Origin: an uncultured Actinomycetes bacterium | Lineage (GTDB): Bacteria; Actinomycetota; Thermoleophilia; Gaiellales; Gaiellaceae | Length of the DNA stretch: 40,000 bases | Reading direction: 5' to 3' | Assembly: GCA_963765455.1 (NCBI GenBank) | Contig: CAVXWH010000002.1 | Coordinates: forward strand, 430,893 to 470,892 | Shown: one piece after another, positions 10,703 through 36,589 of the stretch | Layout of the letters: every line of letters starts with the position of its first letter | How positions within the stretch are numbered: position 1 is the stretch's first letter | Notes under the pieces: model-generated | Databases searched by the model: none | What the model was told of the DNA's origin: nothing | Seen by the model: only the letters and a program-made list of their open reading frames with translations | Translations under genes and position numbers: made by a program

Positions 10703-13514
10703 CCCCAAGCTTGTCGATCGTGCACTTTCTGAGGCTACGAAGCGAGCCGAGAACCTCGATTTCTTCTTCGACAACTTAAAATCGTCGGATTGGATTGAGC
10801 CCCTTCGCGCGAAAGGCTTGTTTTCGGAACCTCCTCGGCAGTACGTCGATGATGAGAGGCTTGTCCGTGCTCCCTCTTGGTCGGCGTCTCGCTATCTCGC
10901 ACGAGTCTCAGCAGTTGCGCCTCAGCTTGTGCTTGAGGTCATCGAGTCGACCGAGACCAATAACGAGCGGGTTCTAGAGGACTTCATTGATGCTGCTGTC
11001 GTAATGCCCCCCGAAGAGGCGTCGCGCATTGCCGTACTCGTAGCGGCGTGGGTTAGCGAACGCGACAATGTCTATTACGGACTCCCGAGTAAGATTGTCG
11101 ATCTAGTCGTCAAGCTAGCCCGCGACGGCCAGCCTGAAGTGGGCATTCGCCTCATGCGTTCTCTCTTCGCGCCCCAGCCCGATGAGCGCGAGCAAGTTTT
11201 ACGCTCGAGCCCGCGGGCTCGTTTTTCGGGATGGGAATATGACACTCGTCTGCGCAAGATAGTGAGCGAGGCGCTTCCGATCGCGCCGAGCTTGTTTCTC
11301 GATGCACTTGCCGAGCTACTCGCAGATGCGCTCAAGTACCTGCGTGAAATCTCCGACCGCGATAACGATGATCTTTCGCGCGTCTGGCGCGTTCACATTA
11401 GAAACGATCGTGACAGGGGAACGGAAGTCGAGGAGGCGCTTACGTCAGCTGTCCGAGACGCGGCAACCGAGATTCGGACTCGGGAGCTTATGAACGACTT
11501 CGATTTGGTAGCGCTGTTGACCGCTCGACCGGAGGAGCTATTCCGACGTATTGCAATGTACGCACTGAGCCAAGAGCCAATGGCTGACCTCGACGTGGTG
11601 TTACCGTTCGTGGTGGACGTCTCCGAGCTTATTGAGGCAGAGCCGAGCCCGGAGTTCCGCGAACTACTCAGAGCGACAGCCGAGCGACTGGATTCCGACC
11701 ATATCGAGCACCTCGTTACGGCGATCTTCGCCGGACCCGATGTCGATCAGTACCGCGAACTTGCGAAGCACTTCGATGGGGTGTGGCCCACAGACGAACA
11801 GACGAGCGCACATGTCGCACGGTGGAGGATCGGACGTCTCGCATTGATCAAGGACGCGCTGCCAGCTGAAACGCGAAGCACGTACGACGCTCTTGTTGCG
11901 GAATATGGTGAAGCTGACATCCCGCTGAGCTGGGAGATTCGTACTTTCAGTGGTCCAAACAGCCCTATCTCTGCCGACGAGCTCAGCGCGATGTCGAACG
12001 ACGAACTGATCTGCTACCTGCGCGACTGGAAACAACCTGAGGGGTTTGGAGAACCATCTGTTGAAGGGCTCGCGCGAGCGATGTCAGTCGTTGCCGAGAG
12101 GGATCCGATGCGTATTAGCCGTCTGGCACCGAGGCTGCGCGACCTCCGGCCGGCATACGTCCAGTGGATTCTTAATGGCTTCGAAGGAGCGATCAGAGAA
12201 CAGCGCAGCTTTGACTGGCCGACGCTTCTCGACATCCTTACTTGGATTGCTGAGCAGCCGCGCGAGATTCCGGGCGGGCGCGGTGACGAATACAGCGATA
12301 TCGATCCCGGCTGGGTTTGGGCGAGGCGCGAAATCGCCGGCCTCCTCGAACGCGGACTCAGCGATCGAGGCGCGTGCGCCATTCCGTTTTCGGAGCGAGA
12401 GCGCGTATGGAATGTAATCACCGCGGTGAGCGAGGATCCCGATCCGACTCCAGAGCATGAGCAGCAGTACGGAGGCCAGAACATGGACCCCGCGACGCTC
12501 GCGCTCAACACTGCACGCCCTCGCGGTCTACGTGCGGCAGTTGCGTATTCGATCTGGGTTTATCACGCGTTGCTTGGAGAGGATGAGCGCTCGATCGGAG
12601 GTTTCTTCGCGGCTCATGCGCCCGAGGCTGCGGTTCTTCTCGAGGCGCATCTCGATCCCCAAGGTGACCCATCGACTTCAGTGCGTGCTGTCTATGGGCA
12701 GTTCTTTGCCAATCTCTTCGCCGTCGATCGGGCTTGGGCGAAAAAGGTTGCCGAAACCGTGTTCCCGGACGAAGACTCAGCGCTTCGTGAAGCAGCTTGG
12801 GGTGCATACGTGATCTACACACGGCCGTACGATGACTTACTGGCCCTGCTCTGTCCTGCGTACCTACGTGCAGCCCAACACGCTCGATCTGACGGTCATG
12901 GCTTCCGATGGATGAACGGCATCCCATCGGAGAAGCTGGGCGAGCACGTCGCAGCCTTTTTTTGGCGCGGTTTGCTCAATATCGACGACCCCCTGATAAG
13001 CGTCTACTGGAACAACGCGTCCGCCGACGCTCGCGGTCACATGATCGAGTTCTTCGGGCGTTCGCTACGCGAAGCGGAGCAGCTCGATCCTGAGATCGAG
13101 AAGAGGCTTCGGGAGTTCTGGGAATTCGCGAAGCGGAACGTACGAAAGGGCGATGTCCCTACTGAGCTCGGCAGCTTTTGTTGGTGGTTCGTTGGAGACA
13201 CGCTTCCACTCGACTGGCGATTCGAGCAGATGATCATAGTGCTGAGCGAGAAAGTTCAGCCACGCGCCGCTTTTCTCGTTGCCGAGAAGCTACCGTCAGT
13301 GGCTCAACAACACCCTCTGCTCGCTGTTCGAGTTCTTCGCCTTTTGCTTCAAGATGCGGAGGTATGGTCGGTAGACGCGTGGCGCAAGGAAATCGAGTCG
13401 GTGCTCCGCATCGCCTACTCCGCCAACGGGGAGGCGCGTGATCTTGCCGAGGAGACGCTGAACTGGCTACTTGCGCTGGGCCACCGGTCTTTCCGTAACG
13501 TGGTCGAGGCTTGA
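10692..13514 (+). CDS. Large (940 aa) predicted all-alpha repeat (HEAT/ARM-like) protein of unknown function
   Basis: Long uninterrupted ORF with Leu/Ala/Glu/Arg-rich helical character throughout. I see no P-loop, nuclease or other catalytic motif. It overlaps the 195-aa gene. Confidence 0.7.
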   Translation: MALDPKLVDRALSEATKRAENLDFFFDNLKSSDWIEPLRAKGLFSEPPRQYVDDERLVRAPSWSASRYLARVSAVAPQLVLEVIESTETNNERVLEDFIDAAVVMPPEEASRIAVLVAAWVSERDNVYYGLPSKIVDLVVKLARDGQPEVGIRLMRSLFAPQPDEREQVLRSSPRARFSGWEYDTRLRKIVSEALPIAPSLFLDALAELLADALKYLREISDRDNDDLSRVWRVHIRNDRDRGTEVEEALTSAVRDAATEIRTRELMNDFDLVALLTARPEELFRRIAMYALSQEPMADLDVVLPFVVDVSELIEAEPSPEFRELLRATAERLDSDHIEHLVTAIFAGPDVDQYRELAKHFDGVWPTDEQTSAHVARWRIGRLALIKDALPAETRSTYDALVAEYGEADIPLSWEIRTFSGPNSPISADELSAMSNDELICYLRDWKQPEGFGEPSVEGLARAMSVVAERDPMRISRLAPRLRDLRPAYVQWILNGFEGAIREQRSFDWPTLLDILTWIAEQPREIPGGRGDEYSDIDPGWVWARREIAGLLERGLSDRGACAIPFSERERVWNVITAVSEDPDPTPEHEQQYGGQNMDPATLALNTARPRGLRAAVAYSIWVYHALLGEDERSIGGFFAAHAPEAAVLLEAHLDPQGDPSTSVRAVYGQFFANLFAVDRAWAKKVAETVFPDEDSALREAAWGAYVIYTRPYDDLLALLCPAYLRAAQHARSDGHGFRWMNGIPSEKLGEHVAAFFWRGLLNIDDPLISVYWNNASADARGHMIEFFGRSLREAEQLDPEIEKRLREFWEFAKRNVRKGDVPTELGSFCWWFVGDTLPLDWRFEQMIIVLSEKVQPRAAFLVAEKLPSVAQQHPLLAVRVLRLLLQDAEVWSVDAWRKEIESVLRIAYSANGEARDLAEETLNWLLALGHRSFRNVVEA

Positions 13515-13528
13515 ACGTGAACAAATCG

Positions 13529-16500
13529 TCACTGGTCATGCTCCTCTAGCCGAGTCCACTTGTGCCTCGCAGCGAGCCTCGTAAGGCAGCCGCGGGCACG
13601 CGCGTGCGGCCTCGCCCCCGCGCGAATGCGTGTCAACGTGCTCGGACTAATCCCAGCCTCGGCCGCCGTCTCCCGAACGTTCATCTCGCGCAGCACCGGC
13701 AATATGAGCGTCTCCCACTCCTCGTCGAACACGTTCCGATATTCGACTAGCACATCTCCTTCGCCGGCAATCAAGCCCGCCGCGACCTCCTCGATCAGGT
13801 TCGCCTCCTTTCCGACGTGCGTGATCGAGAGCGCGCGAACCGGTCGACGCGAGAGCAGCCCTATCGTCCGACGCCCGCACCGCTGCCCGTCTAGGGCGAG
13901 GCTCTTCGCCTCCGGCCGCACGCGATAAGCATCGAGTACGTCTCGATATGTCTTCACGCCGACGACGTCGGGCGGAAGCGCGATCCCACCCGTCTCGATC
14001 GGCGAGCGGCCGAGCCGGTATGTAGGCCCCGATGGGTCGTAGACGTTCCGCCAGGGAAGATGCTGCCATCGGCGCGGATCGGGCTCATAGGGAGCAACTA
14101 ACGCGAACCTTTTCGGATCGGTGCCGATCGGATAACCGCCTGGAGCCACGTGGGCCACGAGCAGGAATCCGTGCGGCTTGATCTGCTCGGCGTACGTCTT
14201 GCTCTCGTTCAGTCCCTTGAAGGGTCGAAGCAGGCGCGGATGCGAGGCCGAAAACTGCGAGAGCGCCGGTCGATCCAGCCAGGGCGCATCTCTCGAAGGA
14301 AAACCGAAGACGTCCGTGCGCACGATTTCCTCCCACACATCCCGCGTCCAGTCGCGTTTTCCACGCCTCTGATCCTCTTTGTCGGGATCGAGCGGATTCA
14401 GGTAGAAGCCACCCAGCGCGTGCTCCGACCACTTGACGAGCTTCGGAGCGCAGGACGAATCGAGCGTGTAGAGGCAGTAGCGCTTGGCGCTAATCGCGAA
14501 GCAGACGAGCTCGCGCTGCTCGCCGGTCTCGGGATCGAAGTTCTCGGGCTCAGCTCTCAAGATCGAGCCGGGCACAAGTGAGCGGTCATAGGGATTGAGC
14601 GCCCCGAAACGCTCCGAGATTCGACCGACCTCTTCCCAGGGAAGCGCGCGAACACATTCCTGCCCCTGCCGATCGATCTCGGGTCCGCCTGCGCAGGGAA
14701 CGAGCCCACCCTCTTTCGTTGACACGATCGCCATCGAGTCGGTGTCGCAGAAGGCGTAAGTACCGCCCGCCTCAGTCACGGAGCATTCGAGCAGGGCCAG
14801 CATTAGCCGCGCAGCTCCGGTGACGAAAGCGGCAATGGGCGAGAAGAAAAACTCCCCGGAATCCTCTACCGCTGACACCTCCGCTTCGAACTGATCGAGC
14901 CCGAAGACAGTGACCGGTGATGGCTCAGCCCGCGATTCCTGGCGATTCAGTTCGGCGAAGATGCCGTAGGAGCCCGAGTTCGCGACCGTCTTGAGGCCAT
15001 TCGCGGATCTCTCGGACTCTGGGTCGCCGAGTTGCTCGAGCCGGCGGCGCTCCTCGACCATCGCCCGGAAGACATCCTCTGTCGTTGGATCGATCGCTCT
15101 CGAGCCGCGGACGGTGAAGGGACGGATACCTGCCGCGCGCCCAACCGGCGCCAGCCGAATGCAGCGGAGGATCTTGGGCGTTTTCCCTGTGACGACGCGT
15201 GAGGTAAGCACGTCTGCGAGCGTCAGCCAGACCGGCTTGCCCGAAAAGAACGGATTGACGCCGATCCCGTAGGAGCCGCCCTCTGAGTAGCGGGCGCGCA
15301 CCGGGAGGATGTCGCCGTTCGGCTGGACGAGAACGAGCGCCGTCAGCCTTGGCCAGAGTCGCTGATCGAAGCAACTACCCAGGCTCTGCCGGAAAAGCCA
15401 GCGCTCGATCGTTACCGGGTCTTCTTCGGCGACCTTGACCCGCGCGCAGATGAGAAAGCGAGAGAGCTTCATCAGTGCGCAGACGGTCGGGTACATGCTG
15501 CGGAAGTCGAGCAGCGTAATCGGAACCGGGGTCCTCCTGATTCGACACTCGGCGCGGCCACCGAAGTAGGCGACCATGCCGTACCCGAGCACCTCCCGAG
15601 AGAAGCTCGGTTGGCGTGCAAGAAGAGGTCGGATTCCGGTCTCTCGTAGAGTTGCCTTGACGAGACTTGCCGGCGAGTAGGTCCTGGTCGGGGCTAGCTG
15701 CAGGTGCCAGCGCTCGTACTCGGTCGCGAGCGCCTGGTAGAGAGAGGCCGTCGCCGCCACATCCTCGCAGCAGTAGTCGACCAGCTCGGTGCTGATTCGT
15801 CCCAGTTCGACCTCACGCTTGACGTAGTCGATACCGAAGGCTCCACAGGCCGATTCAAGCGTGTGCGCCTTGCCGCTCAGCGCATAGGAAAGCGTACGCA
15901 GATCGAGGAACGCTCCCCGACCGCGACGCTTGGCATCGGGATCCGAGCCCGGCCGAGCGCTTCCGAGCCCGATGCGAGCACGCTTGGAGTCGAGCGAGCG
16001 GATGAGCAGCCGCGGGTGAAAGCGGCTCTCGCGCTCGTCGCCATGCTCGTCTGTCCACATCACGCTCTTAAGTGAGAAGCCGCCCTCGAAGCCTCGCGCA
16101 CGCGTCTCTCCCCAGCCGGCGGCGAGCCGGGAAAGGTCGAAGGGCAGGTTGAAGCCAACGACCGTCGCCTTTGCGCTCAGAGCTGGGATCAGGACTTTCG
16201 AGACGAGGGCTGAGCGACTGCGAAGCGAGAAGGCACGACCGGAGTCACGCACGTTTCTGTCGATCGCTGACTCGTGCTCTTCGACGTAGCGCTCGAGCAG
16301 AGCGAGTCCGTTCGGGTCGAGCGTCGGGAGGTCGTCTCCGTAGACGAGGCCCTCATCGACGCAGACAAGCTCTGGCCCAACCTCGCTCCAGCGCAAGCGG
16401 ACGTAGCGGTAGCAGGCAACGAGGAGTCTCTGTGCCGGGTCTATCGTCGTCTCGCAGTCGAGCACGAGAATCGAGTGCGGCCGGCGGGCGGGATCCTCCC

Positions 16501-16621
16501 GGCGCCTTCGCTTCTGAGCCAGCTTGCCTTTGGCGGGCTTGCGCTGCGCTGGCTCCCCCTGAGCTTTGGGAACGGCGTAGGCACGTACGGCGATCGGGAG
16601 TGAATCGGGTTCTCGGGTCAT
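13529..16621 (-). CDS. polB: Family-B DNA polymerase (1030 aa) with 3'-5' exonuclease domain and C-terminal HTH
   Basis: Exonuclease motifs: ExoI ILVLDCETT, ExoII VVGFNLPFDLSRL and ExoIII YCCEDVAATASLY. Polymerase motifs: PolA LLDFRSMYPTV, PolB KTVANSGSYGIF, PolC YAFCDTDSMAIV and the KxY region ISAKRYCLY. The C-terminus carries an HTH-like segment, RETAAEAGISPSTLTRIRAG. Confidence 0.92.
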   Translation of the reverse strand: MTREPDSLPIAVRAYAVPKAQGEPAQRKPAKGKLAQKRRRREDPARRPHSILVLDCETTIDPAQRLLVACYRYVRLRWSEVGPELVCVDEGLVYGDDLPTLDPNGLALLERYVEEHESAIDRNVRDSGRAFSLRSRSALVSKVLIPALSAKATVVGFNLPFDLSRLAAGWGETRARGFEGGFSLKSVMWTDEHGDERESRFHPRLLIRSLDSKRARIGLGSARPGSDPDAKRRGRGAFLDLRTLSYALSGKAHTLESACGAFGIDYVKREVELGRISTELVDYCCEDVAATASLYQALATEYERWHLQLAPTRTYSPASLVKATLRETGIRPLLARQPSFSREVLGYGMVAYFGGRAECRIRRTPVPITLLDFRSMYPTVCALMKLSRFLICARVKVAEEDPVTIERWLFRQSLGSCFDQRLWPRLTALVLVQPNGDILPVRARYSEGGSYGIGVNPFFSGKPVWLTLADVLTSRVVTGKTPKILRCIRLAPVGRAAGIRPFTVRGSRAIDPTTEDVFRAMVEERRRLEQLGDPESERSANGLKTVANSGSYGIFAELNRQESRAEPSPVTVFGLDQFEAEVSAVEDSGEFFFSPIAAFVTGAARLMLALLECSVTEAGGTYAFCDTDSMAIVSTKEGGLVPCAGGPEIDRQGQECVRALPWEEVGRISERFGALNPYDRSLVPGSILRAEPENFDPETGEQRELVCFAISAKRYCLYTLDSSCAPKLVKWSEHALGGFYLNPLDPDKEDQRRGKRDWTRDVWEEIVRTDVFGFPSRDAPWLDRPALSQFSASHPRLLRPFKGLNESKTYAEQIKPHGFLLVAHVAPGGYPIGTDPKRFALVAPYEPDPRRWQHLPWRNVYDPSGPTYRLGRSPIETGGIALPPDVVGVKTYRDVLDAYRVRPEAKSLALDGQRCGRRTIGLLSRRPVRALSITHVGKEANLIEEVAAGLIAGEGDVLVEYRNVFDEEWETLILPVLREMNVRETAAEAGISPSTLTRIRAGARPHARARGCLTRLAARHKWTRLEEHDQ

Positions 16622-17085
16622 GGTTTTGCCTCCGGTAGGTCTCGCCAGCTTGGGTCCTTGTGGTCGAGCGCCTCTTCGAGCGCGATCCTTTGAACCGCTT
16701 CCCGTTCTTCCGCCTCAGCGAGATCGCGGAAGAGAGCCGCACGGCTTTGACGCGCTCCCGCCTGGCGCGTGAGGACGCTACGGTCACCAGTGTGAGAGAG
16801 ATCGACGCCCTCGTCGTGTTGGTGCGCGGTTCTGATCGCGTGGCAGTTCTTGCAGAGCGGCACGACCAAGTCCGGATCGTTCGCATCGCCCGAGACGTGA
16901 TCCCCATCGATGAAGCTCCGTAGAACTGGGATCAAGACTTCGGGCGCGGTGATCCCGCAGAGGATGCAGGCAGCGTCCGGAGGTAACTTGCTTCGCTTGC
17001 GTGCACGTCGCCGATCGTTCGCTATCGGATTCGGCCCTGCGCGGCGTGAGCCCGCGGCCCGCTTGTGCGCTTGCTGGCCGCTCAT
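16618..17085 (-). CDS. HNH endonuclease
   Basis: The motif CILCG...DGDHVSGDANDPDLVVPLCKNCHAIRTAHQH is a His-Asn-His fold with flanking Cys pairs. It has ATGA overlaps with both neighbouring genes. Confidence 0.85.
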   Translation of the reverse strand: MSGQQAHKRAAGSRRAGPNPIANDRRRARKRSKLPPDAACILCGITAPEVLIPVLRSFIDGDHVSGDANDPDLVVPLCKNCHAIRTAHQHDEGVDLSHTGDRSVLTRQAGARQSRAALFRDLAEAEEREAVQRIALEEALDHKDPSWRDLPEAKP

Positions 17086-17684
17086 CTCGTCAGCTCGTAG
17101 ATGTCTTCGATCTCGAGTTCGCCGCGGCGCTCCCAGAGATCGATCGAGGCAGGATCGGTTTCAAGCTCGATTCCGGCGACCCGCTTTCCGCGCAACTTGC
17201 GCAAGCGGGAATCGTCCCCGGTCTTGAGGTAGTGACCGATCGCCGACCAGTGCTCGCCGACCATCGACGCAGCTCTGGAGCCGCGAACGCTCACTTCGTG
17301 CTCGACCCCGTCTCCGCCGAGAACGGTCATGGGGCGGAAGAGACGATCGGAGGGTTTCGCTCGGTAGCGATTTCCTGCGAAATCGAGCGCCTGGCCGGCG
17401 TGTCGAACTACGGCGCCGGGAGTCGTACCGGCTCTTCGCGCAGCTTTCGAGAGCGAGAGCCCGTCTTCGCGCATGCGGTTGAGCGCGTCCAGAGCGGCAC
17501 GTCGTGTCTCTTTCTCGATTGGACTCAGCGCCGTGAGTTGGCGAATGCCTCTAACCGGCTTCGGTGCGCGTCGCCAAGCCGACCAGGAGGAGTAGCCCTT
17601 GCGCTGCGCTAGGGCGTTTCGGTACTGCCGCTCGCTGGAGAAGGTTTGTCCGGCGAAGATGCCTTTCTTCGGAGTGAAGGTCAT
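17082..17684 (-). CDS. Hypothetical protein with a central helix-turn-helix (200 aa)
   Basis: HTH-like segment LSLSKAARRAGTTPGAVVRH. It shares ATGA start/stop overlaps with the methyltransferase upstream and the HNH gene downstream. Confidence 0.6.
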   Translation of the reverse strand: MTFTPKKGIFAGQTFSSERQYRNALAQRKGYSSWSAWRRAPKPVRGIRQLTALSPIEKETRRAALDALNRMREDGLSLSKAARRAGTTPGAVVRHAGQALDFAGNRYRAKPSDRLFRPMTVLGGDGVEHEVSVRGSRAASMVGEHWSAIGHYLKTGDDSRLRKLRGKRVAGIELETDPASIDLWERRGELEIEDIYELTR

Positions 17685-19075
17685 CGCTCGGCCCTCCCGT
17701 CCGCGCCAATGAGTGCGGCGTAGCGAGCGCGAACGAGGTCGCAGTACTTGGGCTCTAGCTCGAGCGCGTAGCAGCGCCTACCCGTCAGTTCGCAGGCGAC
17801 GAGCGTCGATCCAGCTCCGGCGAAGGGATCGATGACGATGTCACCGGGATCCGTCAGAGCTTCGATGTAGGCCTTCGGAAGCTCAACCGGGAAAACGGCT
17901 GAGTGATCCCAACGACGAGTCTCTTTACGCTCTCCCGGCAGGGCCAGGACGGAGCCGATCGGCCTGCTCGGGAGTGTGATCAAGGGCGGGCTCGTTCGAA
18001 GAGTCCCGTCTGCCTGCCGGCGAGTTGTCGTGGTGAGCTTCCCGGCGCTAGCGTTCGGGACGGTGCGAAAGAGCCGCCTAGGCTCTCGACCGAAGACGAG
18101 AAGCCACTCGTGTTGCGGCGGGAAGAAATCGTCCCGCCCGCGCGGTTGAGCGCCGCTCGCCCCCTTGTCCCAGACATTCCAGGCAAGGAAAGAGAGCCCG
18201 GCTTGCTCTGCCGCCTCGATATAGCCGTCCCAATAGCGAACGACGGAGTGATCTCTTCTGACAAGGCCAAGGTTGACGACGATTAGCTCGGCGTGCTCGG
18301 CGAAGATTGGCAAGAACTTCGCCAGGTAGTCGACCGACAGATCCTGCCCCCCGCCGAACATGCGCACGTCGAGATAAGGCGGCGATGTGAAGAGAAGCGC
18401 CGCCTTCTCTCCATCCATCAGCCGCGATGCGTCTGTAGCGCTCGTCGCGTCGCCGCAGAGTAGGCGATGCGCTCCGAGCCGATAAAGCCCGCTCGCCTTC
18501 GACGGAGGCGAGATGATTGGAGCCGCCTCAGGGGCTTGAGGCTCGAAGGCGGTGATCGGCTCACGGCAGAAGGCCTCGCGCGCAAGCCGCTCAGATACTG
18601 CCTGCCGCACGATCTCGGCCGTGAGGCGGTCGCCGTGCTCGGCGCGAAGCTCACGGCAGGTCTCGATGAGGGCGGCTTCGTTTCCTAGAAGCGGCGTCAG
18701 CTCCCGAGCCTGGCCGACGTTACTTGGACCAATTGGTCCGACTATCTCGACCACTTCCGAGGCGGCGATCGTTCGGTTTGCATGGCGCGCCGACATGCCC
18801 CAGCGCTCGCGGCAGTAAGCCTCGAAGGTCGTGTGCGTTTCTCGATACAGACGGGAGTCACGGATCTCCAGGAGCGCCCGGCCGACAACGACAAACGCTT
18901 CGAACCCCTCTTCGACGATCTGCTCTAGCTCAGTAAGACGAGAGCGCTCATCAGGCGCCAGGGGTGACTCGACTGTGGAACGAACGAGCGGCTGGGCCGG
19001 CGGAAGATCTTGGCGCTCTTCTCCCCGCTCGCTCATGCGCTGTCGCTCTTCTCGTCCAGAAGCTGCTCGAGTCAT
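17681..19075 (-). CDS. Orphan beta-class N6A/N4C DNA methyltransferase with an N-terminal DNA-binding-like domain
   Basis: Motif IV FTSPPY precedes motif I VIDPFAGAGSTLVACELTGRRCYALELEPKY, which is the permuted beta-class order. The N-terminal ~130 aa is a helical domain (LYRETHTTFEAYCRERWGMSARHANRTIAASEVV) of a kind seen fused to phage and plasmid methylases. No cognate restriction enzyme gene is nearby. Confidence 0.85.
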   Translation of the reverse strand: MTRAASGREERQRMSERGEERQDLPPAQPLVRSTVESPLAPDERSRLTELEQIVEEGFEAFVVVGRALLEIRDSRLYRETHTTFEAYCRERWGMSARHANRTIAASEVVEIVGPIGPSNVGQARELTPLLGNEAALIETCRELRAEHGDRLTAEIVRQAVSERLAREAFCREPITAFEPQAPEAAPIISPPSKASGLYRLGAHRLLCGDATSATDASRLMDGEKAALLFTSPPYLDVRMFGGGQDLSVDYLAKFLPIFAEHAELIVVNLGLVRRDHSVVRYWDGYIEAAEQAGLSFLAWNVWDKGASGAQPRGRDDFFPPQHEWLLVFGREPRRLFRTVPNASAGKLTTTTRRQADGTLRTSPPLITLPSRPIGSVLALPGERKETRRWDHSAVFPVELPKAYIEALTDPGDIVIDPFAGAGSTLVACELTGRRCYALELEPKYCDLVRARYAALIGADGRAER

Positions 19076-19220
19076 CGGAGAGTCTCCGAAGGACAGAAAC
19101 AGGCTGGAAAGCCAGTGCGGTTTCTGAAGGGTTTCTGCATGTACCCTTCAGCGTGCCTGAGAGAGAGCTATCTGTCACTGGTAGCGGAATGCAAATACGG
19201 CACGACCGGCGGTGTTGCTG

Positions 19221-19226
19221 TATAAT
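19221..19226 (+). promoter_or_regulatory. Candidate -10 box (TATAAT) in the divergent intergenic region of the element
   Basis: A perfect TATAAT lies 37 nt upstream of the ATG at 19263, in the only clearly AT-richer gap between the divergent operons (19076-19262). I found no convincing -35 box. Confidence 0.3.
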
Positions 19227-19262
19227 CAGCGTGATGCGCCGGTTGATTGCAAAGTAAATGAG

Positions 19263-20360
19263 ATGACGAGCGAGCCCCTTGAGATCGATCGACGGCTAGC
19301 CGAGGCTGCATCGGAGCTTGGCGCCGCGGTCTCAGCGCGGCAGGTCAAACGCTGGCGAGAGGCCGGGCTACTACCTACGCGAAAAAAAGGGCTGGGACAA
19401 GGGCTTGGGTCGGCTCCGGCGGAGTTCTTGCCGGGCGCGGAGAAACACGCGGCCTGCCTCGCTCAAGCACTGAAAGACCGTCGCAAGCTGGATGAGGCCT
19501 GCCTCGTCTGCTTCTGGCGGGGCTTCTCTCCCAGAGAGCGCAGGCTCAAGCTTGCGTACGCCAAGCAGTTCAGGCTCCTCTCTGATTGGCTCGAGCACGT
19601 CAGTAGCGCCTCGAGTCCTCAGGCCAAGACCCAGAAGGCTGGCCGTATACTCTCGCGCCGCTCGGCCGGCCACCCAGCGGTGCAAGCGATGCGCGCGCGG
19701 CTAAAGTCAGAAGGCAAGGGGACTCCCTTCTCCAGAGTGCTCTCCAACGCTCTCGGCCCGTTGCTCGGAATCGCGAGCCCACTCCGGCGCGAGACGCTCC
19801 TGGCTTTGGGTGCCGAGGGTCTTCTCACCCCGATCGAGGACGAAGGACCGCTCGCCGAGCCGGACGATCTCCGCCTCGATTGGCTAAAGCTGTCCCGCCT
19901 CGCCGAGGCCGTCGAGAACTCCGTGTTGACCGAGCTGGAGCAGGCGCGGGACGCCTTCCGCTTTCTCTTCTCGTTCACGATCGACTTCGCGTCTCTCGCC
20001 GCGCGAGGCTACGGCCTCAAGGTCGGTCGCCTCAGAGAGTTTCTTCCCAACGAGCTGACCTGCGCGCTCTTAGGTATCCCGACGATGCTCATCTTCCGAG
20101 CGCTCTGGGGCAAGGAGCATCTCGACAGTCGCATCGAGGAGCTTCGCCGCCTGTATCCGCAAGTTCAGGCTCAAAACCGTTTTCTCGACGCGCTTCCGAG
20201 TAAGTGGCATCCGTTCGCCGCCCCGAACGGCTCCATCCGGCTTGCCGCCGCACCCGACGACGAGCGCCAAGCGCTCGTCGAGTTCGTTCAGGAGTGGGCG
20301 GCCGAGCATCCCGAAGACGTAGCCCTAATCACTGAAACGCAAGAGGTGAACGAGACCTAG
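19263..20360 (+). CDS. Hypothetical protein with an N-terminal MerR/excisionase-like HTH
   Basis: I prefer ATG 19263 (MTSEPLEIDRR...) over the track start at 19212. The N-terminal segment VSARQVKRWREAGLLP resembles MerR/Xis-type HTHs. The rest has no recognisable motif. Confidence 0.6.
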   Translation: MTSEPLEIDRRLAEAASELGAAVSARQVKRWREAGLLPTRKKGLGQGLGSAPAEFLPGAEKHAACLAQALKDRRKLDEACLVCFWRGFSPRERRLKLAYAKQFRLLSDWLEHVSSASSPQAKTQKAGRILSRRSAGHPAVQAMRARLKSEGKGTPFSRVLSNALGPLLGIASPLRRETLLALGAEGLLTPIEDEGPLAEPDDLRLDWLKLSRLAEAVENSVLTELEQARDAFRFLFSFTIDFASLAARGYGLKVGRLREFLPNELTCALLGIPTMLIFRALWGKEHLDSRIEELRRLYPQVQAQNRFLDALPSKWHPFAAPNGSIRLAAAPDDERQALVEFVQEWAAEHPEDVALITETQEVNET

Positions 20361-20430
20361 ATAGGAACAAGAAGCCCCCGCGACTGCTCTAACAGCCCGG
20401 GGGCGTGGCACACGGAAAGGATGTTTCCGC

Positions 20431-20799
20431 ATGCAACTCAAAGGTAACGAAGTCCAGGTCGCCTGGCGCGTTCTTCGCTTCATCCTCATCTGCGTCGTGT
20501 CGGCGCTCGTTCTCGGGACAGCGCTCGTCTTCTCGCTCTTTTCCGCCCTGACATCGGGATCTCGCGGTAGGAGGAGCCACCCTGAACTGATCGTGGCCGC
20601 AGCGCTTGCCATCGTGTATGCGCTCTGGCGGAGACGAGACGCTGGCTGGCATGCCTGCGGCCAGTGCGGCGTCCCGATCGAGCCACCCTCAAGAGTGGAG
20701 TACTGCTCGCCGAGCTGTCGCCGCTACGCCCGGCTCCAGCGGGAAGCGTTCGATCGTCGGGCTGAGACTCTCGCCTCCTATGGGGAGGTGCCGTTCTGA
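20431..20799 (+). CDS. Small two-pass membrane protein with a C-terminal FCS-like zinc ribbon
   Basis: Two hydrophobic helices are followed by CGQCGVPIEPPSRVEYCSPSCRRY. Its TGA overlaps the Cas1 ATG by 1 nt (TGATG). Confidence 0.6.
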   Translation: MQLKGNEVQVAWRVLRFILICVVSALVLGTALVFSLFSALTSGSRGRRSHPELIVAAALAIVYALWRRRDAGWHACGQCGVPIEPPSRVEYCSPSCRRYARLQREAFDRRAETLASYGEVPF

Positions 20800-22178
20800 T
20801 GGCGACTTCGATAGATCGCGCCAGGGAAGCCGAGCGCGACCACAGCTCCGTTCCTGCGCAGCTCCGTAGACGCGGGAGCGCCACCGTTGTCGATGGCTTC
20901 GGAGCAGTGCTTCAGGTCGAGCGCGGACGACTCGTCGTCTTGGACGGCGCAGGTAGAGAGAGAAGGGAACGAAACTTCGGCCGGGTCGGAGACTCGATCG
21001 CTCGGGTGGTCGTGCTCGGCGGGACGGGCTCGATCTCGCTCGCAGCGCTTCGCTGGCTTGCCGACCAGGGGATCCCCCTGCTTGCGCTCGATCGCGAGAG
21101 CCGCCTGCTCTGCGTCTCCGTCCCTCCAGCGACGAGCGATGCGCGGTTGCGAAGGGCGCAAGCGCTTGCAGCAACGAATGAGGCGGGGCTCGAGATTGCG
21201 CGTTATCTACTGTGCGAGAAGCTCCGCGGTCAGCGCGAAGTGCTGCTCACGCTCAACCCAGACGAGAGATTAGTCAGCGCCTTCAACCGGGCTTTCCGTT
21301 GGCTGGAAGCGACCACCGACACGAACGAGCTGATGATGGCCGAGCGGGACGCCGCGCTCGCCTACTGGACAGGGTGGAGAGATGTCGAGATCAGTTTCCG
21401 TAAATCGGATGCCGGCCTCGTGCCGCTGTATTGGCGCAGTTTCGGAAAGCGCATTTCACCGCTTACTACGGGACCTCGGCTCGCCGCGAACCCGATCAAC
21501 GCGATCCTGAACTACCTCTACGCAATTCTCGAAGCCGAGACTCGCATCGCTCTTCTCACCGTCGGGCTCGATCCCGTGCTCGGGATCGTCCATGCCGACT
21601 ACAGAGGCAGAGACTCATTCGCGCTCGACGTGATGGAGGCCGCACGGCCGAAGGTCGACGCCTTCGTCCTTCAGCTACTCAGACGCAGGACTTTCAGAGC
21701 CGGCGACTTCTTTGAGACGAGAAAGGGCGCTTGTCGCCTACTTCGCCCATTCACCCATGAGCTGGTGCGAACAGCGCCCGTGTGGGCCGAGCTGGTCGCG
21801 CCGGTTTGCGAGCAGGTAGCGAAGACGCTCGCCGAGGTGCCGGGCTCACGGGTCAAGCGAGTCCTGACTCCGCTGACTCGGTCGAACCACGTCGAGGCCA
21901 GAGAAGCGATACGAAGGCGACCTCGGTCGCAGCTCCGCCTGCCGCTCCCGGAGAAGGTCTGCAAGAACTGTGGCGGGGAGCTTCCGAGACGCGAGCGCGT
22001 CTACTGCGATGCTTGCTACTCGCAGCTCGACTTCCACACGAAGAAGCGTTGTAAGCGCTGCGGCGGAAGGGTTCCGAACCGGAAGCGGGTGTACTGCGAT
22101 TCGTGTCTCGCCGATCACCCGCGCAAGCGGCGTATTCAAGCGGGGGATTGTCAGTGCAGTAGAAAGCCCCGGCTATGA
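20799..22178 (+). CDS. cas1: Cas1-family integrase (putative casposase) with two C-terminal zinc ribbons
   Basis: The N-terminal beta-domain pattern is VVLGGTGSISLAALRWLADQGIPLLALD. The catalytic core is MAERDAALAYW...ANPINAILNYLYAILEAETRIALLTVGLDPVLGIVHADYRGRDSFALDVMEAARPKVD, giving the Cas1 Glu/His/Asp-Glu pattern. The C-terminus carries CKNCGGELPRRERVYCDACY and CKRCGGRVPNRKRVYCDSC. Confidence 0.9.
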   Translation: MATSIDRAREAERDHSSVPAQLRRRGSATVVDGFGAVLQVERGRLVVLDGAGRERRERNFGRVGDSIARVVVLGGTGSISLAALRWLADQGIPLLALDRESRLLCVSVPPATSDARLRRAQALAATNEAGLEIARYLLCEKLRGQREVLLTLNPDERLVSAFNRAFRWLEATTDTNELMMAERDAALAYWTGWRDVEISFRKSDAGLVPLYWRSFGKRISPLTTGPRLAANPINAILNYLYAILEAETRIALLTVGLDPVLGIVHADYRGRDSFALDVMEAARPKVDAFVLQLLRRRTFRAGDFFETRKGACRLLRPFTHELVRTAPVWAELVAPVCEQVAKTLAEVPGSRVKRVLTPLTRSNHVEAREAIRRRPRSQLRLPLPEKVCKNCGGELPRRERVYCDACYSQLDFHTKKRCKRCGGRVPNRKRVYCDSCLADHPRKRRIQAGDCQCSRKPRL

Positions 22179-23159
22179 GCCGAAGGAATCGAAGCTGTCT
22201 CCAGAGTCGATAGCCGTTGCTCCCTTACCTTTGTCGTGCGGAACGCCGACTGTGACTGTTTTCTCGCACGTGCCACCGCGACCGTCGTCAGCCGTGACGT
22301 GGAGGCGGTAGACGCGACCGTCACCTGAGCCGTCTCTTTCGGCTCGGAGCTGGACGGTGTCGCTCGTCACTCCCTTGACGGCGTCCGGAGAAATGTCGCC
22401 ATCGCCAGTCCCGTTCACCGGCTCGTCTTGGGTCACGGAGTCGATCGTCAGCGTGACACTGTCTCCGTCGGGGTCAGTCGCGCCCGAGACCTGGACCATT
22501 ACCAGCTTGTGGTTAGCGGGCCAGAGAGTCGAAGGCGAGGCGGACACGCCACTACAGTCAGGCGGTTGGTCGAGGGCGACCTCGCTGGTAGAGAGCGAAT
22601 AGGTTCCGATCTCCCCCGATTCGCTCTTCCAGAAGACAAGGTCTCCCTTGAAGCCGGTGATTGTTATCTCGCCCGTGCCAGGGACATCTGCCGTTGAGCT
22701 CGACGTACTCTCGTTCGAGAAATTCGTGTCCTGCCGGATGAAACGGCCAGTATCCAGATCTTCATCGTCCGCACCTGCAGTTACGTCGGTTTCGACTTCT
22801 CCGTCCGCCTGCTGATAGGCGCTTGTTGCTTCGATGTTGTCGTAGGACGATCTGTAATCGGAGTCGAGGCCTAATGTCACTACGCGAGGAGCGAAACTCG
22901 GCCACGTTTCTGCCGGCGCCGGGTACTCGACGGTGCTGGTGTCAGTGCCAGAAGGGAACGCATCTTCCAGAGCTTGCTGGAAGCTCAAAGGAACCGTCTC
23001 ACCGAGAATCGTGTCGTAGACGGGAGTATTGGGATCATTCGTGTCCGCTAGCGTCAGGCCAGCGCCGACCCCGGCGATCACTAAAAACGCGGCCACGGCG
23101 ATTCCCGCGCTAGAGCGAGTGCGTTTCAGCATCTTGATTAACGTTCTCATAGCTACCAC
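22173..23159 (-). CDS. Secreted or anchored protein with a C-terminal LWPxNHK-type beta-sandwich domain
   Basis: N-terminal signal/anchor AGIAVAAFLVIAGVGAG. The C-terminus reads PSTLWPANHKLVMVQVSGATDPDGDSVTLTIDSVTQDEP...LRAERDGSGDGRVYRLHVTADDGRGG. Its 3' end overlaps the Cas1 3' end by 6 nt in convergent orientation. Confidence 0.65.
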   Translation of the reverse strand: MVAMRTLIKMLKRTRSSAGIAVAAFLVIAGVGAGLTLADTNDPNTPVYDTILGETVPLSFQQALEDAFPSGTDTSTVEYPAPAETWPSFAPRVVTLGLDSDYRSSYDNIEATSAYQQADGEVETDVTAGADDEDLDTGRFIRQDTNFSNESTSSSTADVPGTGEITITGFKGDLVFWKSESGEIGTYSLSTSEVALDQPPDCSGVSASPSTLWPANHKLVMVQVSGATDPDGDSVTLTIDSVTQDEPVNGTGDGDISPDAVKGVTSDTVQLRAERDGSGDGRVYRLHVTADDGRGGTCEKTVTVGVPHDKGKGATAIDSGDSFDSFGS

Positions 23160-25519
23160 TCCCCTGCAGCCGGCGGTGAGGGGAAATCCTGCTCGCTCTT
23201 CGTATGTGTCACGGTCTTCGCTTGAAAATAAGATGGTATCTTACTCAATCCCATATCTTTCCACCAGGTTTCCCACGAAGTATAAGGGGTCATGGCTGTT
23301 CCATCCGAATTGAACAGGCAGGCGACGAAGATTCGAGATCCGTTGTTATAAAGCGCTCCGGAGTAATTTGGGTTCGTTAACTTCTCTAGAGCCACCCAGT
23401 TAGAGATTTGCGTGCTCGTATAGGCCTGTGGGCAGATGAAAGAAACGTTAGGCGGACGGGAAAGATTAACTACATTTCTTCCTGTCCAATCTTGGGTGTC
23501 AACCGTCCTTGTGTCAGTCGGCCCCGAACATTCCGTGTCCGTTGCGCAACTCGGAGAGATTATCAGGGACCCGTAGTTAATACTTGGAGACAAATATGGC
23601 CAGTCAAAGAGAGTGTTGAAAACATTAAATCCATCCACAACCGCCTTCGTAACAGCGTACGAGCTATACCCTTCTAAATCGAAACGCCATTTACAATTGC
23701 GAAGTGTGGTATTCGTACAATTACGCACTTTGTTTACTTCCTCGATATCAAAGCCTGCAGCTAATCTCACGTTATCGGCAAACGGTTGGGTAGTGAGCCA
23801 TGAGTTAAGCTCCGCGATCTTCAACGCGAACATCATACCGGCGTAAGATGCGAGGCTCGGGTTTTGATTCCAAGCCGAAGGAAAAGCGTTATTGATCCCC
23901 CAAGTGATGAGAACAGATCCCTTGCCAGCCGCTTTATGTCCGTTGTGGTAACCCTTTATGTACTGCTGAAAATCGTTGATGATCGTCGAATAGGGAGTCG
24001 TCCCCTGCGATAAATCGATTATTTTACTACCGTCGGCGTTCGGAGTGCCAGTAGAAAGAACAACGACAGCGTTTTTTATCCCGCGTGCGCCTAACTGCTT
24101 CCCCTGCCGGAAGAAAAGGCCCGAGTTACCCAAGTATTTCTCGTAATAACTCGTCGTGATCTGTGGCATCGGCGGAACCTTGACGGTCACTGAGGCCGCA
24201 TTGGATTGAAGCGGCCCGAGAGTTGCCGTAATGGTGTCGGTTCCCTCAGCGCTAGCGTAGTACGAGAATGTCGCGGTTCCATCGGACCCGAGCAGGACGT
24301 CTTGCTGAAGATCGTCAGCGCCCTGGACGGTGACTGTGGCAGGTTGTCCATTTGCGAGCGAGGGGTCGCTCAACGTGAGATTGGCCGTGACCGTATCCGC
24401 GACCGAAACCTCGTCCGAGTCGGTCGCCACTGTGAGAGTCGCCGGAGGCGCCGTACAGTCGGTGGCCGTCGGTCCCTGGGTGAGCTCGCAGTTGACCCAG
24501 CCCGTCGTCTCTAGATCGGAGCCGATGGCAGTGCGGGCGGCGTCCAGATCCCAGTTGAGCGCAGTGACCTGCGTGGCGCTGTAGTCGGGGTTGTCGAGCT
24601 CGGCGTATGGTCGCGCGGAGGACACCGCGACGGGGTCGTTCGGGATCGCCGAGCCGTCCATCCAGCGCGCGTACCAGGTGGGCGGCGGAGGCAAGGTTCC
24701 GCTCCACCCGCCGGGATCGCACGCGAACTGACCTCCTGAACTAACAGAGGGATACGGCCCGAACCACACATACGTGTTGGGGGTGTCGCACCAGTAGTTG
24801 GAGGGCCAGGAGGAGACCATTCCCCTATCCATAGCCTGGAGCCTCTCGGAAATGGTGTCCCAGGTCGCTTGACTTATTCCATAATCGCCGAGGCCACCGA
24901 ACAGCAGGCTGGCAGTGAAACCGTCGTACCAGGACGAGTCGTCGGTACCCCGGAAGGTGAGCGCCCAGATCGGGTTGCCGCCGTTCACGGTCGCGGTGAA
25001 GTTAGCGCCCGACCATTGAAAGGAGGGTGGTGTCCCGGTGTAGAGACCTAGGTGACCGTTTGGGTCGTACTGCCAGTACGCAGAGCCCGACAGGTCGTGG
25101 CCGGTAGTGAAGGGCGCGACCGTGCCGAGACCTGTGCCCATGGTGATCGCATAGACCGGATAGTCGCTTTGGCTTGCGTCTGCGACGGCCCAGCTCCAGC
25201 TGTCCTCCGTATCCGTCTTGACGGTGAGTTGCCCACCGTTGATGGTTTTCGGGTCGGGCAGGCCGGCTTTGAGCGCCGCCAGCCTGGCGTCACCAAGCAC
25301 GTTTTGGATGCCCTGGGGCGCGCCATTTTCCGCATCCTGCCAGACCGCCTGGTCCTGCACGACCTGGAGCAGCTTGCTTGCGTAGGAGGGATCTAGGTAG
25401 GGAGCAGTCGCGCCGCTCGAGTCGGCCGAGGCGCTCGAAAGCAGACACGCAAAGACGATCAAGCCGACAGCGATCGCAAGCGGCAGGCGGAGGCGGGGGA
25501 CGGCGCGCATCGCAGGCAC
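23153..25519 (-). CDS. Large secreted protein (788 aa) of unknown function with an Ig-like segment
   Basis: Signal peptide LRLPLAIAVGLIVFACLLSSASA. An Ig-like stretch reads TVTANLTLSDPSLANGQPATVTVQGA...DTITATLGPLQSNAASVTV. AGGAG lies 7-8 nt before the ATG. The 3' half is markedly AT-rich. Confidence 0.7.
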   Translation of the reverse strand: MPAMRAVPRLRLPLAIAVGLIVFACLLSSASADSSGATAPYLDPSYASKLLQVVQDQAVWQDAENGAPQGIQNVLGDARLAALKAGLPDPKTINGGQLTVKTDTEDSWSWAVADASQSDYPVYAITMGTGLGTVAPFTTGHDLSGSAYWQYDPNGHLGLYTGTPPSFQWSGANFTATVNGGNPIWALTFRGTDDSSWYDGFTASLLFGGLGDYGISQATWDTISERLQAMDRGMVSSWPSNYWCDTPNTYVWFGPYPSVSSGGQFACDPGGWSGTLPPPPTWYARWMDGSAIPNDPVAVSSARPYAELDNPDYSATQVTALNWDLDAARTAIGSDLETTGWVNCELTQGPTATDCTAPPATLTVATDSDEVSVADTVTANLTLSDPSLANGQPATVTVQGADDLQQDVLLGSDGTATFSYYASAEGTDTITATLGPLQSNAASVTVKVPPMPQITTSYYEKYLGNSGLFFRQGKQLGARGIKNAVVVLSTGTPNADGSKIIDLSQGTTPYSTIINDFQQYIKGYHNGHKAAGKGSVLITWGINNAFPSAWNQNPSLASYAGMMFALKIAELNSWLTTQPFADNVRLAAGFDIEEVNKVRNCTNTTLRNCKWRFDLEGYSSYAVTKAVVDGFNVFNTLFDWPYLSPSINYGSLIISPSCATDTECSGPTDTRTVDTQDWTGRNVVNLSRPPNVSFICPQAYTSTQISNWVALEKLTNPNYSGALYNNGSRIFVACLFNSDGTAMTPYTSWETWWKDMGLSKIPSYFQAKTVTHTKSEQDFPSPPAAGEW

Positions 25520-25766
25520 TCCTAATTAGGTTGGGGGAAACCAGGTGTCCAAAGGCAAACTCGTAGACCGAAACTAGGGATCCGTCTATACGAAGTCAAG
25601 CTTCGAGCGCTAAAACCCCTCGTGACGGGCGCTGATATCCCTCACCAGGGGGATAAACGCAAGCCTACTTCCAGAACTAAGGCTGACTTTGCGCTGAGAT
25701 AGCCGACCATCTGTCACCCATGCGGCTCGTTTCGATCGACGGTTTTTCTTTTCGGGCGGGCAACTT

Positions 25767-25799
25767 GTGCGCGTTTCGGCTGGCCTGTCTTTTAACCCG
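25767..25799 (-). repeat. Right terminal inverted repeat
   Basis: GTGCGCGTTTCGGCTGGCCTGTCTTTTAACCCG is the inverted partner of 9831-9864. Confidence 0.8.
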
Positions 25800-25812
25800 A
25801 TACCGTCTGTTC
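25799..25812. repeat. Right copy of the putative target-site duplication (GATACCGTCTGTTC)
   Basis: Identical to 9818-9831 and immediately outside the right TIR. Confidence 0.75.
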
Positions 25813-36573: not shown

Positions 36574-36589
36574 GAACTAATACGCCTGC

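Follow-up and report, generated by a model that had tools for sequence, protein, structure and literature searches.

What kind of integrase is encoded by a Cas1 gene whose product ends in tandem zinc ribbons, and what is the small membrane protein that is translated just ahead of it? The question is raised by a stretch of 40,000 nucleotides (the window) from an uncultured Actinomycetes bacterium of the family Gaiellaceae (assembly GCA_963765455.1, contig CAVXWH010000002.1, positions 430,893 to 470,892, forward strand). The two open reading frames (ORFs), for proteins of 122 and 459 residues, stand exactly where a preliminary description of the window had placed them. The locus is, on balance, probably best explained as the integrase operon of a family-3-type casposon, with a casposase whose zinc tail serves DNA recognition and with a membrane-anchored accessory protein. 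Casposons, self-synthesizing transposons that depend on Cas1, are the proposed ancestors of the adaptation machinery of CRISPR. To our knowledge, biochemical work on casposases has been confined to archaeal enzymes of families 1 and 2.

Identity of the casposase and its element

The 459-residue protein matches Pfam Cas_Cas1 (1.7e-45, residues 30–315) and TIGR00287 cas1 (3.1e-33). It consists of an N-terminal beta domain, a helical catalytic domain and a tail of 90 residues. The catalytic residues E245/E247, H265 and D277/E280 are invariant in a 30-sequence alignment that spans all tail types; judged by these residues, the protein is a catalytically intact casposase. Its AlphaFold2 model (predicted local distance difference test, pLDDT, 81.5) has the casposase 6OPM as top fold match (E 5e-19, TM-score 0.77 on the target).

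The features that define a casposon are found together: Cas1 with its catalytic residues, a family-B DNA polymerase (PolB), terminal inverted repeats (TIRs) with a target site duplication (TSD), and a position outside any CRISPR-Cas locus. A TIR and TSD search of the window bounds an element of 15,967 bp (Table 1). The TSD, GATACCGTCTGTTC, is a perfect 14-bp repeat. The TIRs are 32/33 nt long; the left one, GGGTTAAGAGACAGGCGCCTTCGAAACGCGCAC, pairs with the reverse complement of the right one, GGGTTAAAAGACAGGCCAGCCGAAACGCGCAC, and in abbreviated form the repeat is GGGTTAAGAGACAGG…CGAAACGCGCAC. G+C content is 50–65% in the casposon versus 66–70% in the flanks, and the drop spans about 10 to 29 kb of the window. 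Among the companion genes of family 3, an HNH endonuclease is detected, and a 382-residue protein is helix-turn-helix (HTH)-like by its N-terminal motif alone.

For family placement, the reference Cas1 cores of Additional file 2 of Krupovic et al. 2014 were realigned with the window Cas1 and eight relatives. Core identity to family-3 references is 46% for AceAut-C1, 40% for S. spinosa, 36% for StrAlb-C1 and 33% for both HenMar-C1 and NitAL212-C1. It is 26–30% for family 2, 18–26% for CRISPR Cas1 and 21–22% for family 1. In a neighbour-joining tree of 286 columns, bootstrap values are 59% for grouping with AceAut-C1, 80% with AceAut, SacSpi and StrAlb, and 47% with all five family-3 references. 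The element is filed, from these sequences, as a family-3 casposon with moderate phylogenetic support. That this Cas1 is of the casposase kind, as first proposed, is borne out by the TIRs and TSD, by the family-3 grouping and by the 6OPM fold match.

Relatives are numerous (2,419 homologues at E<=1e-10), and the best 120 are 46–96% identical. Their genome loci belong to metagenome-assembled genomes (MAGs) of Gaiellaceae, Solirubrobacteraceae, Thermoleophilia and Acidimicrobiales, with single records of Thermomicrobiales, Vicinamibacterales and Bacteroidota type. A tblastn search of a plasmid collection with Cas1 yielded CRISPR Cas1 at about 30% identity only and no casposon relatives.

Cas1 as a CRISPR protein is excluded by the TIRs, the TSD, PolB, HNH and the missing array. 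It is extremely improbable that the gene is a degenerate or orphan CRISPR adaptation gene, its zinc modules being a lineage quirk. Public annotation does name the homologues 'CRISPR-associated endonuclease Cas1', and in a PDB sequence search CRISPR Cas1 4N06 comes top, slightly above 6OPM. However, no CRISPR array is found in the 40-kb window. The gene 3' of cas1 is a convergent 328-residue ORF, so that cas2 is absent from that position (other small ORFs were not scanned for it), while TIR, TSD, PolB and HNH are all present. Moreover, the protein clusters with family-3 casposases, and independent insertions each have their own 14-bp TSD.

Zinc-ribbon tail of the casposase

The C-terminus of Cas1 does hold the two near-duplicate Cys4 modules first noticed there. 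Module 1 (CKNCGGELPRRERVYCDACY, residues 388–407) and module 2 (CKRCGGRVPNRKRVYCDSCL, residues 418–437) are identical at 13/20 positions. Behind them lies a DNA direct repeat (21949–22015 and 22039–22105) of 67 nt, 70% identical, whose 90-nt period indicates a 30-codon tandem duplication. Pfam DZR_2 (double zinc ribbon) matches both modules above its cut-off of 27 bits, with 28.6 bits on Cas1 (residues 381–437) and 31.4 on the isolated tail (370–459); it is a generic structural family without an assigned role in transposition and is uninformative on function. The modules had been called FCS-like. This name does not fit: matches are to DZR_2/DZR, the second knuckle is CxxC, and zf-FCS is unlisted at E<=10 for the Cas1 tail, for single modules and for the ribbon of the small protein (HMMER filters can drop weak matches). 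All relatives in the alignment (30/30) keep residues C388, C391, C403 and C406 of module 1. The 90-residue tail is very basic, with 26 K/R versus 8 D/E (net about +18). In the AlphaFold2 model each ribbon is a beta knuckle with a short helix after it (pLDDT 76–87), and on this basis the modules are read as treble-clef-like.

Tails were surveyed in 121 proteins, classed by ribbon count and HTH. One ribbon (CxxCGGxxPxxxRxYCDxCLP), followed by about 110 residues that end in an HTH (…ATGLSLRYCSQIRRGEKxPHPRHW), is present in 81/121. Two ribbons without HTH are found in 11/121, the window Cas1 among them, and three ribbons without HTH in 16/121, which gives 27/121 with two to three tandem ribbons and no HTH; the relative L025 has four ribbons on a looser count. 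In a tree of 118 cores built by the unweighted pair group method with arithmetic mean, a crude tree used only to show that multi-ribbon forms are scattered, these forms make up five or more separate clusters interspersed with HTH forms. The distribution suggests that ribbons may have been repeatedly gained and lost by unequal recombination between repeat units. The end of the window's module 1 resembles that of module 2 in the three-ribbon protein P0006. Module 1 is ancestral to the whole clade; module 2 arose by the 30-codon tandem duplication and occupies the HTH's usual place.

A zinc module on a casposase is not new, contrary to the preliminary description; it was published in 2014 for family 3. 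The Cas1 of NitAL212-C1 has an N-terminal zinc-binding domain and a C-terminal HTH, in AceAut-C1 both are C-terminal, and casposons also encode small zinc-binding, HTH and ribbon-helix-helix proteins (Krupovic et al. 2014, PMC4046053). A 2023 review repeats the zinc-domain statement on family-3 casposases. The HTH-less tandem-ribbon tail is a variant for which no description was found in the searchable casposon literature.

The AceAut-C1 casposon is the nearest known system. It shares with the window element a bacterial host, genes for Cas1, PolB, HNH and methylase/HTH proteins, TIRs and a TSD of about 14–15 bp; its Cas1 core is the closest reference, and its ribbon-plus-HTH tail is the majority architecture of the clade. 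Unlike it, the window Cas1 lacks the HTH and has the zinc module in tandem duplicate (triplicate in some relatives), and the window element adds a co-translated, membrane-anchored zinc protein before Cas1. The Methanosarcina mazei casposase (family 2, 6OPM; Hickman et al. 2020, PMC6977970) is alike in fold and in having an essential C-terminal DNA-binding appendage. It differs in sequence (24% identity), in that the appendage is an HTH, in its archaeal host and in that no upstream membrane protein is reported.

DNA recognition by the integrase is probably the task of the zinc tail. In the M. mazei casposase, deletion of the HTH abolishes integration, and this HTH is proposed to recognise target-adjacent sequence (PMC6977970). 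The zinc tail would take over the role of the Methanosarcina HTH and set the enzyme on the casposon ends and/or on target-adjacent sequence; TIR and leader-like motifs would be its likely ligands.

Zinc ribbons and treble clefs commonly mediate protein contacts, and the modules might, rather than read DNA, serve protein-protein binding or oligomerisation: they might, for example, be docking sites for PolB, a host factor or the small protein, or give stability to the casposase tetramer. The source of DNA specificity would then be the core, the HTH of PolB or the 382-residue HTH-like protein. The copy number of ribbons, which runs freely from one to three (four by the looser count in L025), would suit such a function, as would the element's retention of a PolB HTH and of a separate HTH-like protein. 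This is nevertheless unlikely in view of the extremely basic tail (net about +18), of the replacement by extra ribbons of an HTH, which binds DNA and which the M. mazei enzyme cannot do without, and of the invariance of module 1 with or without the small protein.

A DNA-reading role of the tail is thus preferred, and the HTH itself has not left the element. The window PolB has the motifs LDCET, DFRSMYPT, CDTDS and KRY (ExoI, PolA, PolC, KxY); Pfam DNA_pol_B_2 is its only Pfam match, a weak one (27.3 bits, cut-off 25.8), and a PDB sequence search with it gave no match. The C-terminus of this PolB (window positions 13529–13800) carries an HTH, ILPVLREMNVRETAAEAGISPSTLTRIRAGARPHAR, that shares homology with the HTH on Cas1 of relatives (37% over 41 residues, E 7e-5), so that the HTH lost from Cas1 is still supplied on PolB. 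The PolB of L046 has the window-type HTH, that of L048 a zinc ribbon (CxxCG…FCSxxCR), and those of L005 and L006 other HTHs; by this comparison, PolB C-terminal tails appear to be interchangeable. C-terminal HTHs on casposon PolBs were noted before (Krupovic et al. 2014, PMC4046053).

Small membrane protein coupled to the casposase

The small protein has a strongly hydrophobic stretch at residues 14–40 (nt 20470–20550; the Kyte-Doolittle mean over 19 residues reaches 2.59), a conserved Arg-rich loop after this anchor (RGRR here; RDKRSRS and SRRRRAR in relatives) and a second hydrophobic helix at about residues 51–66 (peak 1.16). Residues 76–96, CGQCGVPIEPPSRVEYCSPSC, form a Cys4 ribbon (C76, C79, C92, C96; nt 20656–20718), which is followed by a basic helix and by the C-terminal sequence GEVPF (nt 20782–20796). 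In the AlphaFold2 model (pLDDT 71), a long N-terminal helix and a second helix are followed by a hairpin at 74–82, a helix at 94–116 and a free tail. Two transmembrane helices had been proposed; the first stands, the second is uncertain. The simplest topology, which follows from the positive-inside rule, would be a single span with the N-terminus outside and with the Arg-rich loop, ribbon, basic helix and tail in the cytoplasm.

Among 12 close homologues of full length (62–100% identity) the hydrophobic N-terminal part varies conservatively, and WHACGQCGVPIEPPSRxEYCSPxCRRYARLxRE…S(Y/F)GEVPF is invariant. G+C at third codon positions is 0.73, equal to that of Cas1, and the ratio of nonsynonymous to synonymous substitution rates against orthologues is 0.07–0.25. 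By these sequence measures the small ORF is a real coding gene for a conserved accessory protein. When 1.84 billion representative proteins were searched exhaustively with a profile, which was more informative than a metagenome scan with the small-protein alignment (3 loci only), only 46 clusters at 50% identity came up. Nearly all of them are 75–160 residues long, are hydrophobic at the N-terminus and carry the motif Cx(Q/E)CGxPIxxPSRAxYCSxxC; a P(F/Y) end is present in 31/45 examined clusters, VVDDDVPF and IPDDEIPF among them. No significant Pfam match was obtained for the small protein (sub-threshold: zf-MYND 0.013, DUF2116 0.08). A PHROG HNH-family match (E 0.0072) covers the ribbon only and was discounted as a zinc-knuckle match.

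The conserved (D/E)(V/I)P(F/Y) C-terminus of the family resembles the tail of SSB, the protein that binds single-stranded DNA, whose C-terminal hexapeptide DDDIPF is a protein-docking motif (PMC5872125). Like the SSB tail, it is an acidic/aliphatic/Pro/aromatic sequence at the extreme, apparently flexible C-terminal end. The SSB docking motif, an acidic run before (I/L/P)-P-F at a free C-terminus, is matched in part. Unlike SSB, the window protein has one acidic residue in GEVPF and no OB fold; the likeness is of 4–5 residues and lies partly over the Shine-Dalgarno sequence of Cas1.

The small protein and the Cas1 tail had been said to carry the same type of ribbon. This holds in part. A profile of 184 Cas1 ribbons aligns with the small-protein ribbon in hhalign at 71% probability (P 3.8e-5) over 18 columns (CxxCG..P...R.YC), which is weak support; the second knuckle is CxxxC in the small protein (YCSPSC) versus CxxC in Cas1 (YCDxC), and the small protein has no significant match in Pfam. 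Ribbons of the form CxxCG…(F/Y/W)CSxxCR recur at the PolB C-terminus of L048 (CEWCGEVMSSARRPDARFCSGRCRSLAAR) and in small ORFs of L044, L017 and L020.

At the junction TTC TGA TGG the stop codon TGA (20797–20799) and the start codon ATG (20799–20801) share one base, and a Shine-Dalgarno sequence, GGGGAGG, lies 10 nt upstream of the Cas1 ATG. The translational coupling read earlier from this overlap is upheld by relatives: the TGATG junction is kept in 10 loci (window, L001, L044/45, L046, L048/49, L050, L004, L052, L056 and the P0157 contig, the last inferred by coordinates). Cas1 lies directly 3' of the small gene in 13/14 contexts, L051, L055 and L057 included. A protein of 300–380 residues with the motif 'RWREAGLL', the small gene and Cas1 form a three-gene operon. 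A programmed frameshift fusing the small ORF to Cas1 was set aside, the conserved Shine-Dalgarno sequence and ATG and the Cas1 N-terminus conserved in homologues fitting ordinary coupling. The supposed pairing of the small protein with a ribbon-tailed Cas1 is conserved as regards position, but it is not specific to the tandem form. The partner Cas1 is two-ribbon in the window, L001, L044/45, L046 and L048/49, and of the one-ribbon-plus-HTH type in L004 and L052; in the P0157 contig it has a length (544 residues) typical for the latter type. In the more distant casposons of L022, L031 and L032 (Acidimicrobiales MAGs) the membrane protein is absent and a different, soluble zinc-ribbon ORF (…ITCKRCGLSFETEATTNTRCRRCRAVVRVP…) stands just before Cas1.

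The casposon literature, as far as it is searchable, holds no report of a co-translated membrane zinc protein, and the one described here, with its SSB-tail-like end, is new. Two known arrangements invite comparison. In NitAL212-C1 a zinc-binding module lies directly N-terminal to the Cas1 core (which starts at residue 112), the same order as small ORF then Cas1, although that domain is not reported to be membrane-anchored; by analogy, one and the same arrangement could exist in fused form there and in split form here. The protein p16.7 of phi29 is a membrane protein that organises replication of the phage (PMC4974454). It too is small, with an N-terminal anchor and a C-terminal nucleic-acid- or protein-binding part, and comes from a PolB-carrying element; it has no zinc ribbon, and the likeness, an analogy, is of layout, not of sequence. 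Replication of phi29 is protein-primed.

Tentatively, the likeliest role of the small protein is that of a membrane-anchored adaptor. It would be made in step with the casposase through the TGATG overlap and face the cytoplasm. Nucleic acid would be bound by its ribbon and helix, and a partner by the (D/E)(V/I)P(F/Y) C-terminus; this partner could be the casposase, PolB or some host protein able to read the SSB tail. By analogy with p16.7 and the phi29 PolB replisome, it would bring the element's integration or replication to the membrane. Membrane tethering or regulation of integration, the idea of the preliminary description, may be a reasonable one.

A possible role of somewhat lower likelihood is that of a brake, which holds newly made casposase at the membrane 1:1 and keeps transposition rare or signal-coupled while itself taking no part in integration or replication. 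Strict translational coupling and the membrane anchor are in keeping with a brake, and so is the dispensability of the small gene in many related elements. A pure inhibitor, however, would need no conserved ribbon of nucleic-acid type, no basic helix and no docking-type tail. It is improbable that the small ORF has no tie to Cas1 beyond a common transcript and is cargo, such as a membrane peptide of exclusion, toxin or holin-like type. It is small, hydrophobic and without family annotation, and one relative stands away from Cas1; yet it keeps the same position and the TGATG junction where Cas1 is only about 50% identical and other cargo is completely different, and it is upstream of Cas1 in 13/14 contexts.

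Several points weigh against the explanation as an operon of casposase, DNA-reading zinc tail and membrane-anchored accessory. Family-1 casposases function without an extra domain (PMC8464041), and a C-terminal DNA-binding module is thus not universally required. Bootstrap support for family 3 is moderate, and the tree is neighbour-joining (286 columns), not maximum likelihood. The second hydrophobic helix is too short to be called transmembrane, which makes the topology uncertain. The GEV codons (GGG GAG GTG) double as the Cas1 Shine-Dalgarno sequence, so conservation of the tail may be partly at the nucleotide level; the V and P codons vary synonymously with the residues retained, and distant members end in DDDVPF/DDEIPF, which argues for selection at the protein level too. 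The distant member P0184 (L053/L054) is, among the 14 contexts, the sole one not beside Cas1. Its protein ends in VVDDDVPF, its next gene is an oppositely oriented HTH gene, and from such a context the family may occur in other mobile elements also. Finally, the small gene is present in 1/42 genome loci of the wider clade (absent from 41/42), and being missing from most relatives it is not essential to the chemistry of the clade. In favour of the preliminary description, neither outcome that it named as refuting is seen: the Cys modules at the C-terminus of Cas1 are conserved, and so is the small upstream ORF, which is coding.

Target site, gene content and significance

Three insertions can be compared. 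The relative L048 is complete: its TIRs are 51 nt long and its 14-bp TSD reads CATATCGAGAAAAG; in L046 the preserved end adjoins GGTATCGAGAAAAG. The insertions of the window, L048 and L046 are in unrelated neighbourhoods, yet all have CCACCC(A/G)CCC(A/G)C..GG ending 8–9 nt outside the TSD (9 nt in the window, 8 nt in L048 and L046). Regions with shared motifs are 9793–9831 and 25799–25860 in the window, 1150–1190 and 18380–18420 in L048, and 14198–14260 in L046. The three TSDs are related (xATAyCG…), with TATCGAGAAAAG in two. On the far flank, the window and L048 both have CGAAA(A)CGC and CGTGCCGA; beyond these two short shared words the right-hand flank alignment is too weak. About 21 nt inside each TIR stands CGAAACGCGCAC, and the far-flank word CGAAA(A)CGC likewise lies about 21 nt inside the TIRs. 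The reconstructed empty site is …CCACCCGCCCGCGCGG-N9-GATACCGTCTGTTC-AGGCTACGAAACGC…. With three sites as the sample, the pattern suggests site-specific integration in which a leader-like motif similar to the casposon's own termini acts as guide. Guidance by such an end-like leader motif is described for A. boonei (PMC6614799). As a repeated genomic element the motif is unsupported: it has 2 matches in the window, and 28/100 shuffles do as well. An RNA gene as insertion target was rejected, since Rfam finds only five tRNA genes in the window (Arg-TCG, Leu-TAG, Arg-TCT, His-GTG, Gly-TCC; ARAGORN agrees), at 35415–38612, about 10 kb from the casposon.

A terminus identical to the window's left TIR is also present in L046 and L004. 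The TIR core was not found at <=3 mismatches in L044, L045 or L048; an inverted-repeat search shows that L048 carries a different TIR and did not fix the ends of the L045 element.

Table 1. Coordinates of the casposon, its parts and its target site in the window
Feature	Position	Strand	Basis or remark
GC-rich 'leader-like' motif CCACCCGCCCGCGCGG	9793..9808	+	9 nt outside left TSD; recurs in L048, L046
Left TSD GATACCGTCTGTTC	9818..9831	.	identical 14-mer at 25799–25812
Left TIR GGGTTAAGAGACAGGCGCCTTCGAAACGCGCAC	9832..9864	+	match to reverse complement of 25767–25798
Whole casposon, 15,967 bp	9832..25798	.	TIR and TSD boundaries, composition
195-residue ORF before/overlapping Dsr1-like gene	10115..10702	+	without match
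Cargo: 940-residue protein like C-terminal part of Dsr1	10692..13514	+	PADLOC Dsr1 3.8e-31
Family-B DNA polymerase, 1030 residues, C-terminal HTH	13529..16621	-	Pfam DNA_pol_B_2 2.2e-6; PHROG 3.9e-9
HNH endonuclease, 155 residues	16618..17085	-	PHROG HNH families, best 2.2e-5
Conserved 200-residue protein	17082..17684	-	syntenic 196–200-residue gene in L046, L048
N6/N4 DNA methyltransferase, 464 residues	17681..19075	-	Pfam N6_N4_Mtase 2.5e-22
Conserved protein of about 300–380 residues (382 here), first of three-gene casposase operon	19212..20360	+	synteny
Small 122-residue protein	20431..20799	+	ORF call, homologues, substitution-rate ratio
TGATG stop/start overlap	20797..20801	+	same junction in relatives
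Casposase, Cas1 family, 459 residues, core residues about 26–345	20799..22178	+	Pfam and NCBIfam Cas1
Zinc module 1, residues 388–407	21960..22019	+	whole clade; Cys invariant in 30/30
Zinc module 2, residues about 418–437	22050..22106	+	tandem duplicate at usual HTH place
Cargo: two predicted secreted proteins, 328 (weak Big_9) and 788 residues	22173..25519	-	includes 49.5% G+C stretch
Right TIR, reverse complement GGGTTAAAAGACAGGCCAGCCGAAACGCGCAC	25767..25798	-	match to left TIR
Right TSD GATACCGTCTGTTC	25799..25812	.	match to left TSD

The core gene set comprises PolB, HNH endonuclease, the 200-residue protein, N6/N4 methylase, the 382-residue protein, the small ORF and Cas1. The 200-residue protein is without family match in profile scans including Pfam, PHROG and PADLOC. 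The 382-residue protein, likewise without match in the profile libraries, has the HTH-like 'RWREAGLL' motif at its N-terminus, and its homologues precede the small ORF in L001, L045, L048, L004 and L052. The 70-nt spacer 5' of the small ORF (20361–20430) contains an inverted repeat, GCCCCCG…(17 nt)…CGGGGGC, without T-run, which might act as a regulatory hairpin or be bound by a protein; a promoter and terminator scan of 19000–22400 gave nothing above shuffles and did not call this hairpin.

Cargo is variable. The match of the Dsr1-like protein covers the C-terminal two-thirds of the defence protein Dsr1; relatives have other cargo of defence type: L048 has ApeA/HEPN and Mrr_N, L045 a methylase together with Mrr_cat/NA-iREase1. 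The two secreted-protein genes, in tandem on the minus strand, contain the window's lowest-G+C kilobase (49.5%, 23–24 kb) and are kept in L001; the 788-residue protein is without family match. Flanking host genes are Nramp on one side and GH16/ClpX/ClpP on the other. With a Gaiellaceae MAG protein the flanking ClpX shares 96% identity, and related loci are found in Actinomycetota MAGs; the host of the element is bacterial, a Gaiellaceae-like actinobacterium of soil. A 30/60-nt tandem repeat (4.7 and 2.5 copies) at 33178–33328 lies within a host subtilase-family gene (33025–35001, minus strand). L001 (ERZ25039512 contig_35970, 1.12 Mb) is a related MAG with an orthologous insertion, a 96% identical Cas1 and the same flanks; its PolB and methylase are in fragments, by decay or assembly errors. 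The same contig carries at 0.78 Mb (L044) a second casposon of the lineage, with a 74% identical Cas1 and its own small ORF.

In the casposases studied so far, the role of the essential C-terminal domain and the reading of the target 'leader' remain questions (PMC6977970). The large unstudied actinobacterial family-3 branch (the 2,419 homologues at E<=1e-10) offers natural swaps of the tail, namely HTH or one, two or three zinc modules, as a domain-swap series for what the tail recognises. Independent insertions with a common flanking motif offer a route into the question of target recognition. The accessory protein is a candidate link of Cas1 integration to host replication or to the membrane. 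A further reading, bolder and doubtful, makes the small protein a new transposon accessory factor whose SSB-mimicking tail captures SSB-partner enzymes or PolB beside the casposase, the HTH or ribbon tails of Cas1, PolB and small protein all reading a motif common to casposon ends and leader-like target sequence. If this were true, Cas1 integration and gap repair or replication would be coupled to the membrane and the replisome, and the casposon would provide, in bacteria, a counterpart to the way in which CRISPR adaptation recognises its leader.

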